Shown: positions 1 through 2,197 of the stretch, piece after piece
Numbering within the stretch: the stretch's first letter is position 1
Layout of the letters: each line of letters starts with the position of its first letter
Assembly (NCBI RefSeq): GCF_003334255.1
Contig: NZ_QOWU01000140.1
Direction: 5' to 3' (one strand)
Source of the DNA: Escherichia coli
Lineage (GTDB): Bacteria; Pseudomonadota; Gammaproteobacteria; Enterobacterales; Enterobacteriaceae
DNA: 2,197 nucleotides
Notes under the pieces: model-generated
What the model was told of the DNA's origin: nothing
Database searches by the model: none
What the model saw: only the letters and a program-made list of their open reading frames with translations
Program-made: the position numbers and the translations under genes

Positions 1-22
1 AGCTGATAGAAACAGAAGCCAC
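1..22 (-). CDS. insA: IS1 InsA, 5' end only (partial; CDS continues beyond window start)
   Basis: On the - strand, GTG at 22-20 followed by GCT TCT GTT TCT ATC AGC reads (M)ASVSIS, the InsA N-terminus, at the expected distance from the IRL. Confidence 0.6.
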
Positions 23-54
23 TGGAGCACCTCAAAAACACCATCATACACTAA

Positions 55-77
55 ATCAGTAAGTTGGCAGCATCACC
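55..77 (-). repeat. IS1 terminal inverted repeat (IRL, insA-proximal), 23 bp
   Basis: ATCAGTAAGTTGGCAGCATCACC at 55-77 is the reverse complement of the IS1 IRL GGTGATGCTGCCAACTTACTGAT. Confidence 0.85.
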
Positions 78-282
78 TCATGGTGATGGTAATAAAGAGC
101 ACTTTTTTACGCCCTATTCTGTCGCCCATTTTGCCGAAAATAAATGCTCCGACAATACGCGCCACATAACCTGCACCGTAGGTTCCCATTGCCAGAATTA
201 ACGCCATTGCCGTTGATGATTCAGGAAAAAATATTTCATGAAACACTAACGCTGCGCCGAGCGAATATAACTGGAAATCCAT
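73..282 (-). pseudogene. MFS transporter (metabolite:H+ symporter-like, ProP/ShiA/KgtP type) 5' fragment, truncated by IS1
   Basis: The 69-aa ORF contains the TM1 motif DFxLYS..AALVF..FFP and MFS signature G-x-x-x-D-R-x-G-R-K-K (FGKMGDRIGRKKVL) with the spacing seen in ProP/ShiA/KgtP. Native sequence stops at position 78; the last Arg codon spans the IS1 junction and the TGA stop (75-73) lies inside IS1. A protein of roughly 400+ aa is expected, so more than 80 percent is missing. Confidence 0.75.
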
Positions 283-697
283 AATTCACAGGTGTTTTTT
301 CCCATCCTGTGGTTTCCTTGGCGTTTTCTAGGTTTTTTCAGATAGTTGCATTTTTTTAAAAAGCATCCTAAGTTCGATCTCAGTGTCTATCTGGGGCCTA
401 TTTCTGTCCCATATATGCCCCAAAAAAACTCCCCAACAGATAAGTAGTTTTTTCATGGATTTATGCGTAAAATCAAGAACGGCTGGAAATCATTCAATAC
501 TCACACTATCGAAAAATTTACCAGCCAATCGCAGCACGTTCTTGCATAAGGTGTGTCTGCGGTTTTTCAACTATTCAGATACATCACTCCCATCACATTC
601 ATTCCTCCGCATCAAAGGCATATAGGCTATATCACCTTGATATTTTTCTTTTTCAGATAAAAACTGTTATCTATGTATACTTTTAAACCCAATCCGT

Positions 698-710: not shown

Positions 711-1055
711 ATAAGATAGTTTGCAGTTGCCGCTTCAGCTTGCGCCATAAACCGCCTGATTTTTGCTGCCACCTGTTAGCATTCCTGTATACCTGAAACG
801 ACAATGTTTATCTACGAACTTTAAGAACACCCAAGATAAAAATTGTCAACTATATCATATATAACACATTACTAATTCGAGGCTATATGAACAGCATACT
901 GATAATCACATCTCTCCTTATCATATTCAGCATTTTTAGTCATGCCCTAATAAAATTAGGGATTGGCATATCCAATAACCCAGACAAAACCGATGTATAA
1001 GTCAACATATCCTGAATCAGACATACAATATCGCAATGAAAATCAATAATATTTT

Positions 1056-1060
1056 AAGGA
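1056..1060 (+). promoter_or_regulatory. Shine-Dalgarno (AAGGA) for small ORF start at 1069
   Basis: AAGGA at 1056-1060, then an 8-nt spacer (atatcttc) before ATG 1069-1071. Confidence 0.4.
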
Positions 1061-1068
1061 ATATCTTC

Positions 1069-1302
1069 ATGAAATCAAAAGACACCCTAAAGTGGTTCCC
1101 TGCGCAGCTTCCTGAAGTAAGAATTATCCTAGGGGATGCTGTAGTGGAAGTAGCAAAACAGGGAAGACCTATCAATACCAGAACATTGCTTGATTACATT
1201 GAAGGAAACATAAAGAAAAAATCATGGCTGGATAACAAAGAATTATTACAAACAGCGATATCAGTTCTTAAAGACAACCAAAATTTAAATGGTAAAATGT
1301 AA
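1069..1302 (+). CDS. hypothetical small protein (77 aa from ATG 1069; 88 aa if upstream ATG 1036 is used)
   Basis: Open frame of 267 nt in AT-rich DNA where stops are frequent. ATG 1069 has an AAGGA Shine-Dalgarno 8 nt upstream; ATG 1036 has none. The translation has protein-like composition and is not low-complexity. No family recognised by eye. Confidence 0.45.
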   Translation: MKSKDTLKWFPAQLPEVRIILGDAVVEVAKQGRPINTRTLLDYIEGNIKKKSWLDNKELLQTAISVLKDNQNLNGKM

Positions 1303-1475
1303 TATAATAAACTTACTTTTTTATCATTTTTCCACTTTAACAACATTTTGCTCCACTTTTCCACGACCAAACAACTTGAAATCTGGTTAAAATAACACGC
1401 AACACTATTCTTCTTCCTTGAGTCCGCCCGGAACTCGAAAAACAAACCGAGTTAAAGCCATTTTTCACAAAATCG

Positions 1476-1495
1476 ATTTTGGGTCTCACCAAAAT
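1476..1495. repeat. inverted repeat ATTTTGG-gtctca-CCAAAAT
   Basis: Seven-bp perfect arms (1476-1482 and 1489-1495) around a 6-nt spacer GTCTCA, the same hexamer present in the 1603-1617 site. Confidence 0.3.
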
Positions 1496-1602
1496 TACGG
1501 GGTTGCATACGCATTCGTTTATTTTCGAACGTGTACATACAAATATGCACAAAAATAATCATAATTATTTTCTGAGATGCATTATGATATGAACACCAAT
1601 TT

Positions 1603-1618: not shown

Positions 1619-2125
1619 ATGTCTCAAATTTTTGCTTACTGTCGGATATCAACGCTGGATCAGACCACCGAAAATCAACGCCGGGAAATCGAAAGTGCAG
1701 GTTTTAAAATCAAACCTCAGCAAATAATCGAAGAACACATTAGCGGCTCAGCAGCAACCAGTGAGCGTCCTGGTTTTAACCGGTTGCTTGCTCGCCTGAA
1801 ATGTGGTGATCAATTGATTGTGACAAAACTGGATCGCCTTGGTTGTAATGCAATGGATATCAGGAAAACAGTGGAACAACTGACCGAAACAGGTATCAGA
1901 GTGCATTGCTTAGCATTGGGGGGCATTGACCTGACCAGTCCAACAGGAAAAATGATGATGCAAGTAATTTCAGCAGTCGCTGAATTTGAACGAGACCTTT
2001 TACTTGAACGCACTCATTCCGGGATAGTAAGAGCCCGCGGCGCAGGGAAACGTTTTGGTCGACCACCTGTGTTAAATGAAGAACAGAAACAGGCGGTATT
2101 CGAACGAATTAAGTCAGGTGGGTAA
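1619..2125 (+). CDS. small serine recombinase (resolvase/invertase family), C-terminus truncated by IS1; probably inactive
   Basis: 168-aa ORF. The N-terminus YCRISTLDQ matches the serine-recombinase catalytic motif (Y-x-R-x-S-T, Ser11 as nucleophile). KLDRLG and the [15 protein letters not shown]-helix align by eye with Tn3/gamma-delta resolvase, followed by a GRPP arm. The native sequence ends at 2120, after only the first helix of the C-terminal DNA-binding domain; the last Gly codon spans the IS1 junction and the TAA stop (2123-2125) is inside the IS1 IRR. Confidence 0.85.
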
Positions 2126-2143
2126 TGACTCCAACTTATTGAT
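2121..2143 (-). repeat. IS1 terminal inverted repeat (IRR), 23 bp
   Basis: GGTAATGACTCCAACTTATTGAT at 2121-2143 is the reverse complement of the IS1 IRR ATCAATAAGTTGGAGTCATTACC. Confidence 0.85.
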
Positions 2144-2197
2144 AGTGTTTTATGTTCAGATAATGCCCGATGACTTTGTCATGCAGCTCCACCGATT
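2136..2197 (-). CDS. insB: IS1 InsB (transposase) 3' end, partial; CDS continues beyond window end
   Basis: The - strand of 2136-2197 translates to ...SVELHDKVIGHYLNIKHYQ followed by TAA, the InsB C-terminus. Confidence 0.6.
   Translation of the reverse strand, partial: SVELHDKVIGHYLNIKHYQ

Follow-up and report, generated by a model that had tools for sequence, protein, structure and literature searches.

What does a small open reading frame that lies just upstream of a serine recombinase gene in an Escherichia coli contig encode, and does its product act on the recombinase? The window, i.e., the whole stretch of 2,197 nucleotides analysed here (NCBI RefSeq assembly GCF_003334255.1, contig NZ_QOWU01000140.1), carries on its + strand an open reading frame at 1036..1302 that corresponds to 88 aa and has an internal ATG at 1069, from which 77 aa are encoded. 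The original prediction, made from the letters of the DNA, described an orphan without a recognisable family and speculated about a directionality factor or a transcriptional regulator. The frame is present in the sequence with the good Shine-Dalgarno before ATG 1069 that had been described, the 77-aa product is basic as stated (pI 9.57, 13 K+R against 9 D+E), and the serine recombinase gene indeed follows closely, starting at 1619, 316 bp downstream. However, the frame is not an orphan. It is, with virtual certainty, ydfK, the gene for a real protein in the cryptic lambdoid prophage Qin of E. coli. It is not a new gene either, as ydfK is already annotated and there is published evidence for its transcription, cold regulation and protein expression.

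The identification was obtained at both the protein and the DNA level. The 77-aa product is 100% identical to YdfK of K-12 (b1544, UniProt P76154) and differs by one residue from the paralogue YnaE of the Rac prophage (b1375). When the window was compared with 5,426 complete E. coli genomes by megablast, the frame fell under the RefSeq annotation 'ydfK: cold shock protein YdfK', which recurs for it across thousands of E. coli genomes. Positions 60-2120 show 99.7% DNA identity to the left end of Qin in K-12 MG1655, where the order is ydfJ / ynfT (b4748), ydfK (b1544), pinQ, tfaQ, stfQ; in the K-12 record the annotated Qin prophage DNA starts at about position 274 and overlaps the first ydfJ codons. 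Likewise, in the window the frame sits near ydfJ, between 'ynfT: YnaM/YnfT family protein' and 'pinQ: recombinase family protein'. The full-length identity and the Qin position between ynfT and pinQ place the product in the YdfK/YnaE family. The Rac prophage carries the paralogous order ynaM-ynaE-pinR-tfaR-stfR and is 98.9% identical to the window over 525-2120, the identity of Qin and Rac beginning at 525. The features of the window are as follows.

1..77, - strand: IS1 end with the left terminal inverted repeat at 55-77 (an IS1 family transposase is annotated under the matches)
73..282, - strand: ydfJ (MFS transporter), of which the left IS1 leaves the first 69 codons (ORF list, K-12 annotation)
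652..681, + strand: candidate sigma-70-like promoter TTCAGA-18-TATACT (consensus scan, 9/12 matches, in the part common to Qin and Rac)
887..1000, + strand: ynfT, YnaM/YnfT family, membrane protein of 37 aa with one helix (63.9 bits with NCBIfam NF041477, whose cut-off is 35)
1036..1068, + strand: in-frame upstream extension of 11 codons from ATG 1036, outside the detected protein
1055..1060, + strand: Shine-Dalgarno TAAGGA of ydfK, 8 nt before ATG 1069 (read from the sequence)
1069..1302, + strand: ydfK coding sequence, 'cold shock protein YdfK', 77 codons and stop (annotated in RefSeq for strain 4848 and for K-12)
1532..1559, + strand: promoter-like site of pinQ, TGTACA-16-AATAAT (consensus scan)
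1619..2120, + strand: pinQ, small serine recombinase, truncated by IS1 after about 167 of 196 codons (annotation, ORF list)
2121..2197, + strand: second IS1 end with the right terminal inverted repeat at 2121-2143 (same inverted-arm pair)

The inverted arms found at 55-77 and 2121-2143 correspond to the terminal repeats of IS1. Between the two IS1 ends ynfT and ydfK are intact, while ydfJ and pinQ are truncated. Neither junction, on the ydfJ side or on the pinQ side, is contiguous in any of the 5,426 complete E. coli genomes, and the IS1/ydfJ junction had no match among species-representative genomes either. The frame had also been described as lying between repeated palindromic sites, but the two sites, 687-707 and 1595-1615, are no more alike than shuffled sequence (alignment score 24; shuffled null 18.7 +/- 2.3, maximum 27) and were therefore dismissed as recombination sites or cassette boundaries. 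The motif is missing upstream of pinE in e14, and its dyad, GAG-T-CTC, is centred on one base, whereas the sites of serine recombinases have a crossover core of 2 bp.

Concerning transcription, promoter-like sites are no commoner in the scanned region than in shuffled sequence (7 vs 5.3 +/- 2.2), and the site at 652..681 might at most be a candidate for the start of a long ynfT-ydfK leader. ynfT is probably on the same transcript as ydfK. For pinQ, a genomic SELEX study of RpoD gives the same hexamers as those of the site at 1532-1559 (PMC3946193), which suggests that pinQ is transcribed separately from ydfK. None of the hexamers quoted in that study for ydfK and ynaE lies inside the window.

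The translation start of ydfK follows from published mass spectrometry. In top-down measurements on E. coli colonies, intact monoisotopic masses of 8772.78 Da for YdfK, obtained in BL21, and 8745.75 Da for YnaE were determined (PMC5594050). By computation, the 77-aa form that keeps its Met has a mass of 8772.80 Da, and the 88-aa form one of 10129.57 Da. Because the measured value fits the 77-aa and not the 88-aa form, translation starts at ATG 1069. This ATG is preceded by the Shine-Dalgarno sequence with its AAGGA core at 1056-1060, and an equivalent purine-rich motif precedes the start in Salmonella and in the YdfK-family locus L013, whereas inspection of the sequence upstream of ATG 1036 revealed no Shine-Dalgarno. 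In Salmonella the upstream frame lacks an ATG and ends after 8 codons; in L013 the in-frame upstream ATG is missing too, and a stop codon immediately precedes the start. Aligned full-length homologues start with MKS or MNS at the equivalent Met, except for a few N-terminally extended gene calls. The 88-aa form from ATG 1036 is thus ruled out by the measured mass and by the missing conservation of the upstream ATG.

These data also bear on the caveat that the frame might be open by chance and have no product. Two open reading frames of similar length, which had been called junk, do exist close by on the other strand (1194..1445 and 1337..1552). However, the detection of the intact protein at exactly the predicted mass and a dN/dS of 0.085 between the ydfK genes of E. 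coli and Salmonella (Nei-Gojobori; Sd 26.5, Nd 13.5) refute this reading, to which we give a negligible probability. In addition, homologues down to 26% identity keep the conserved motifs, and the structure of YdfK is predicted with confidence. For distant pairs within the family pS is about 0.8, meaning that synonymous sites are saturated, and pN is 0.2-0.3. Judged from these substitution patterns, ydfK is under strong purifying selection.

YdfK and YnaE are among the clearest cold-induced proteins of E. coli. Cold induction of the ydfK and ynaE transcripts was first reported by Polissi et al. (2003), as cited in PMC5594050, and refrigerated colonies gave peaks of both proteins (PMC5594050). 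According to Raghavan, Sage and Ochman (2011; cited via PMC4444293 and PMC10654059), the 5' UTR of ydfK functions as an RNA thermosensor, and fragments of the leader bind Hfq (PMC4152368, PMC5089854). When uropathogenic E. coli is shifted from 23 to 37 C, the YdfK protein drops while its mRNA is unchanged (PMC12890032), which fits post-transcriptional control. In a pull-down with the RNA-decapping enzyme NudC, YdfK was captured only at 16 C, together with CsdA and Hfq (PMC10654059).

When the ydfK leader was folded at 10-37 C, no clear temperature switch was seen, and the predicted accessibility of the ribosome-binding site was 0.25-0.39 at every temperature. In the minimum-free-energy folds the Shine-Dalgarno (1055-1060) pairs with UCCUUA at 915-920 inside ynfT, which would imply translational coupling. 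This pairing was rejected, as the segment reads UGCUUA in Salmonella and L013 and no compensating changes are found. An Rfam scan gave no family at threshold, only chance-level matches to CssrB and mir-263.

The relatives of YdfK form a small family. A word-indexed protein search returned 94 relatives, nearly all with the precomputed Pfam assignment PF27475 'YnaE'; the top clusters, 97-99% identical to YdfK, bear this assignment and the name 'cold shock protein YdfK'. A profile search of 1.84 billion representatives yielded just 31 proteins at E <= 0.001. Among the PHROGs, phrog_2718, whose function is given as unknown, matches residues 1-77 of 77 with an E-value of 1.8e-47. The Pfam-A scan of YdfK gave no match at E <= 10 because the scanned copy of Pfam does not contain PF27475. 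Neither YdfK nor YnfT was matched by the PADLOC defence models, and the best hit of a PDB sequence search with YdfK had an E-value of 0.46. Named relatives come from Escherichia, Salmonella, Enterobacter, Klebsiella and Limnobaculum, and structural matches add further genera of Enterobacterales. The PF27475 family is thus small, restricted to Enterobacterales where the matches are named, and found mostly in prophage-like contexts.

Outside E. coli the gene neighbourhoods are different. In Salmonella (L010/L011) the order is a second family member of 70 aa, a 137-aa ORF, YnaM, YnaE and then a tail-fibre assembly gene; a cold-shock-domain gene lies near the homologue and a recombinase is absent. 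The DNA similarity of the window to Salmonella covers only 834-1306, i.e., ynfT, ydfK and a short stretch upstream, and ends 4 bases past the stop codon of ydfK. The neighbours in the Enterobacter cloacae complex are YnfU, GnsAB and DUF892 genes and a large glycoside hydrolase, and those of the prophage-borne Limnobaculum homologue, which lies between lysis genes and the terminase, are YnfU and a BON-domain gene; at locus L014 the family gene is found near tail genes. None of these three neighbourhoods includes a recombinase. Taken together, the Salmonella, Enterobacter, Limnobaculum and L014 loci indicate that the conserved partner of ydfK is the small membrane ORF rather than the recombinase. 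In E. coli, Salmonella, L013 and the diverged L014, the YdfK-family gene follows a YnfT-like ORF that is marked by a single TM helix and an SNNxD tail; the spacing is 68-77 bp in E. coli, Salmonella and L014 and 32 bp in L013. Such an ORF is missing from the family loci in Enterobacter, Limnobaculum and L016. As a separate observation, further cargo genes related to stress or cold are found around YdfK-family genes, namely those for cold-shock-domain, GnsAB and YnfU proteins.

The structure prediction for YdfK, built from 18 sequences, is all-helical with three helices and no strands, and it is confident. In a structure search YmgB (PDB 2OXL) was the best match among those listed (Foldseek E 0.045), and the YdfK model superposes on it at 1.8-2.0 A. 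The predicted structure thus has the three-helix fold of YmgB; three-helix bundles as such are common. The only NCBIfam match of YdfK points in the same direction but stays far below the family cut-off (YcgZ_fam, NF040640, E 0.011, 15.9 bits against 80). Pfam places YcgZ and AriR together in PF10798 'YmgB', a family that YdfK does not hit even at E <= 10.

Single-sequence comparisons of YdfK with YcgZ (17.8%), AriR (1.8%) and YmgA (3.6%) were too weak to use, and family profiles were therefore built. With hhalign, the YdfK and YcgZ profiles gave a probability of 69.6% (E 4.2e-5, 61 columns), against a usual comfort level of 90-95%, and the YdfK family against AriR gave 31%; as a yardstick, YcgZ against AriR gave 93.6%. 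The YdfK scores, 29.6 for YcgZ and 24.7 for AriR, exceed the maxima of 200 column shuffles (20.1 and 17.8) and the reversed-profile controls (16.3 and 15.6, respectively). YdfK, YcgZ and AriR share the core LGxAVxxhxxxGRxhNxxxL. The conserved N-terminal motif TLxW[FY]PxQLP of the YdfK family has no counterpart in YcgZ or AriR, and the median pI differs, with 9.6 for the YdfK family, 6.3 for YcgZ and 4.6 for AriR. Based on the structure model and the profile comparisons, YdfK likely has a YmgB-like fold and a distant common ancestry with YmgB/YcgZ. As the curated family thresholds were not reached, we do not file it as a member of YmgB/AriR/YcgZ. In the literature searched, no paper was found that links YdfK/YnaE with the YmgB/YcgZ family.

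Returning to the recombinase, the suggestion that YdfK is a recombination directionality factor or another accessory protein that controls PinQ draws on the position of ydfK, which lies 316 bp upstream of the recombinase gene and is co-oriented with it in Qin as well as in Rac, and on its small, basic product. Yet the two prophages are 98.9% identical across the stretch, and because of this their synteny counts as one observation. The conserved synteny that had been proposed as a check is limited to these near-identical E. coli copies. As the relatives in Salmonella, Enterobacter, Limnobaculum and L014 have no adjacent recombinase, the directionality idea is unsupported; the Salmonella similarity breaks off right after ydfK. 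Further points speak against it: the predicted fold is all-helical and YmgB-like, with no excisionase-type protein among the structural matches listed; pinQ has a promoter-like site of its own; cold and not prophage induction governs expression; and in this contig IS1 destroys pinQ, yet ynfT-ydfK is intact and identical to K-12. Adjacency to a recombinase within a single prophage lineage is therefore no evidence of a directionality factor, and among distant homologues the link vanished. We regard a role of YdfK in controlling PinQ as very improbable and are confident that YdfK is not a directionality factor. YdfK would then have no role in PinQ recombination, and the adjacency would reflect the position of a cargo gene at the tail-fibre end of the prophage. 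Of the two roles originally suggested, a regulatory one stays plausible in a broad sense, while the part that concerns recombinase directionality does not hold.

The proteins of the YmgB/YcgZ group offer a guide to the function of YdfK. YmgB and, to a lesser degree, YmgA activate the Rcs phosphorelay (PMC3509220). YmgB also binds SpoT directly and separately from Rcs activation; the contact residues lie mostly in helix 3, and the function can be uncoupled from Rcs (PMC10704370). YcgZ lowers the activity of the ompF promoter and is degraded by Lon, and the ycgZ operon is temperature-controlled through BluR (PMC5491885). From these mechanisms the YmgB/YcgZ proteins appear as small helical adaptors of low temperature that bind host proteins. 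A further lead comes from over-expression with the ASKA library, where about 40,000 clones were screened, 29 candidates were sequenced and 7 lowered ytfK'-lacZ; ydfK and ycgZ are two of these seven, and of the hits only cpdA was re-validated (PMC8600398). The literature searched contains no report of a partner, a phenotype or a mutant effect for ydfK.

The explanation that we favour overall, with somewhat more than even confidence, is that Qin ydfK encodes a prophage-borne, cold-made regulator of the YmgB/YcgZ type. The thermosensing leader of ydfK would permit translation in the cold, and YdfK would act like YcgZ, YmgA and YmgB as a small helical regulator that has no enzymatic activity. It would bind a host signalling protein, candidates being SpoT, a member of the Rcs phosphorelay or the ompF/ytfK pathway, and the prophage would in this way supply its host with an extra regulatory adaptor triggered by cold. 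It is possible, by analogy to YmgB and YcgZ, that YdfK influences a host signalling pathway through contact with another protein, though we hold this at a little under even chances. Still more tentatively, YdfK/YnaE may be an unrecognised prophage-borne branch of YmgB/AriR/YcgZ that serves as a cold connector, possibly with YnfT, to host signalling. The basic charge of YdfK, compared with YcgZ and AriR, makes a different partner possible, nucleic acid included.

The latter leads to a direct role of YdfK on DNA or RNA, as a transcriptional regulator or as a helper of RNA metabolism in cold shock. The family is basic (median pI, see above), several databases name members 'DNA-binding transcriptional regulator', and the segment AKQGRPINTRTLLDYI between helix 1 and helix 2 looks helix-turn-helix-like. 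The cold-specific capture with NudC, alongside CsdA and Hfq, and the cold-shock-domain, GnsAB and YnfU genes that neighbour it elsewhere fit such a role as well. We consider it unlikely, at roughly one chance in five. A different proposal takes YnfT and YdfK as a functional pair, e.g., a membrane sensor with its adaptor or a toxin-like peptide with its modulator. The small TM ORF upstream of the family gene in four loci, from E. coli to L014, argues for it, and in L014 the architecture of TM helix and SNNxD tail is retained even though the proteins are strongly diverged. Moreover, YnaM/YnfT is a curated family, and YnaM, the Rac copy whose sequence is identical to YnfT, is among the small proteins confirmed by tagging (PMC6001520). 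YnfT also bears a faint resemblance to PepG1, a type I toxin (E 0.055). However, this match is far below its cut-off (13.1 bits against 70), PADLOC matches neither protein, and the upstream ORF is lacking in Enterobacter, Limnobaculum and L016. A functional pair is therefore rather improbable in our view; it is compatible with a YmgB/YcgZ-like regulator rather than exclusive of it.

The link of the cold-made YdfK to YmgB/YcgZ is a modest, testable lead and not a discovery. If YdfK is a cold connector of this kind, cryptic prophages could rewire the envelope, biofilm or stringent responses of their host at low temperature.

Compared with known systems, the closest counterpart of the locus is that of K-12, which has the same gene order ynfT-ydfK-pinQ and differs from the window only in the surroundings, i.e., the IS1 cuts. 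The excisionases of the Xis type, which are winged-helix proteins, resemble YdfK as small basic proteins beside a site-specific recombinase in a prophage. However, the YdfK model has no beta-strand that could form the wing, and searches of Pfam, NCBIfam and the PHROGs gave no excisionase match. The neighbour of YdfK, PinQ, is a recombinase of the small-invertase type, and small invertases such as Hin, Gin and Pin work with Fis and an enhancer and not with a directionality factor. With the CspA family (PF00313) ydfK shares the induction by cold and a long regulatory mRNA leader, the latter assigned by published work. Proteins of this family are five-stranded beta-barrels, have no sequence or structural relation to YdfK, which is predicted to be all-helical, and no Pfam CSD match was obtained. 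YdfK is thus a 'cold shock protein' by expression only; cspB, cspF and cspI are further cargo of Qin.

More is shared with YmgB/AriR, YcgZ and YmgA of the ycgZ-ymgABC operon. No effect of YdfK on Rcs, SpoT or ompF is reported in the literature searched, and the control differs, being assigned to an RNA thermosensor in the literature on ydfK and to the BluR/BluF repressor system for the ycgZ operon. However, with 78-90 aa these proteins are comparable in size to YdfK, the ycgZ locus adjoins prophage-derived genes (PMC3509220) as ydfK is prophage cargo, and both YcgZ/YmgB and YdfK are made preferentially at low temperature.

The small gene ydfK has a conserved upstream partner, ynfT, which is encoded on the same strand and lies within the stretch that the literature takes as the thermosensing '5' UTR' of ydfK. 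The pair is uninterrupted between two IS1 ends that bound the window.

Features of the window around the ynfT-ydfK pair
1-77, IS1 terminus, cuts ydfJ
887-1000 (+), ynfT, a 37-aa single-helix membrane protein
1303-1618, spacer of 316 bp between ydfK and pinQ
1532-1559 (+), promoter-like site TGTACA-16-AATAAT, 60 nt upstream of pinQ
2121-2197, IS1 terminus, cuts pinQ

The distance between the small membrane ORF and the ydfK-family gene is 68-77 bp in E. coli, in Salmonella and at the locus L014, where the ynfT-like and the YdfK-like proteins are both highly diverged, and 32 bp at the locus L013. At the left end of the window ydfJ is cut by IS1 after its first 69 codons, and at the right end pinQ is cut after about 167 of its 196 codons. 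As we read the terminal repeats, the two IS1 elements have the same orientation. A search of 5,426 complete E. coli genomes and of the species-representative genomes found neither junction as an unbroken stretch, and the source strain therefore falls outside both collections; it may be a Shigella.

Downstream of ydfK, the similarity to Salmonella stops at position 1306, and within the spacer (1303-1618) no intrinsic terminator was detectable. An RpoD genomic SELEX study (PMC3946193) gives for pinQ exactly the hexamers of the promoter-like site, and it also marks an H-NS site within the spacer. The second copy of a short direct repeat ends 4 nt upstream of the pinQ start codon.

Copies of the 21-nt direct repeat
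687-707, first copy, with a small dyad GAG-T-CTC
1595-1615, second copy, with the same dyad

The original prediction regarded these copies as paired sites. Their local alignment score of 24 is within the range of shuffled sequences (18.7 +/- 2.3, maximum 27). The 9-mer TAGAGTCTC has exactly two occurrences in Qin and Rac. The repeat probably arose by chance. Alternatively, the two copies may represent a shared operator. Chance is also the probable origin of a weak Rfam match on the minus strand (530-667) to CssrB, a chromosome-encoded sRNA of Shigella. The match has an E-value of 0.44 and reaches 19.5 bits, where the gathering score is 76. The alignment is good only in the 3' hairpin (530-565), and the position of the match coincides with the start of the Qin/Rac similarity at 525.

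In other genomes, namely in Enterobacter (L005, L006), Limnobaculum (L007, L008), a Salmonella enterica contig (L010) and the locus L013, YdfK-family genes are repeatedly found amid small stress and cold cargo genes, including those for YnfU, GnsAB, DinI and DUF892 as well as cold-shock-domain and BON-domain genes. These recurring neighbours suggest that the genes belong to a pool of prophage-borne stress genes rather than to a fixed operon. The Salmonella contig carries a further family member.

L010 4143-4355, second, diverged YnaE-family gene, whose 70-aa product shares about 29% identity with YdfK

This gene precedes the ynaM-ynaE pair by 650 bp, and thus two members of the family lie close to each other in Salmonella. 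In this respect the two YnaE-family genes resemble ycgZ-ymgA-ymgB, a run of paralogous small genes.
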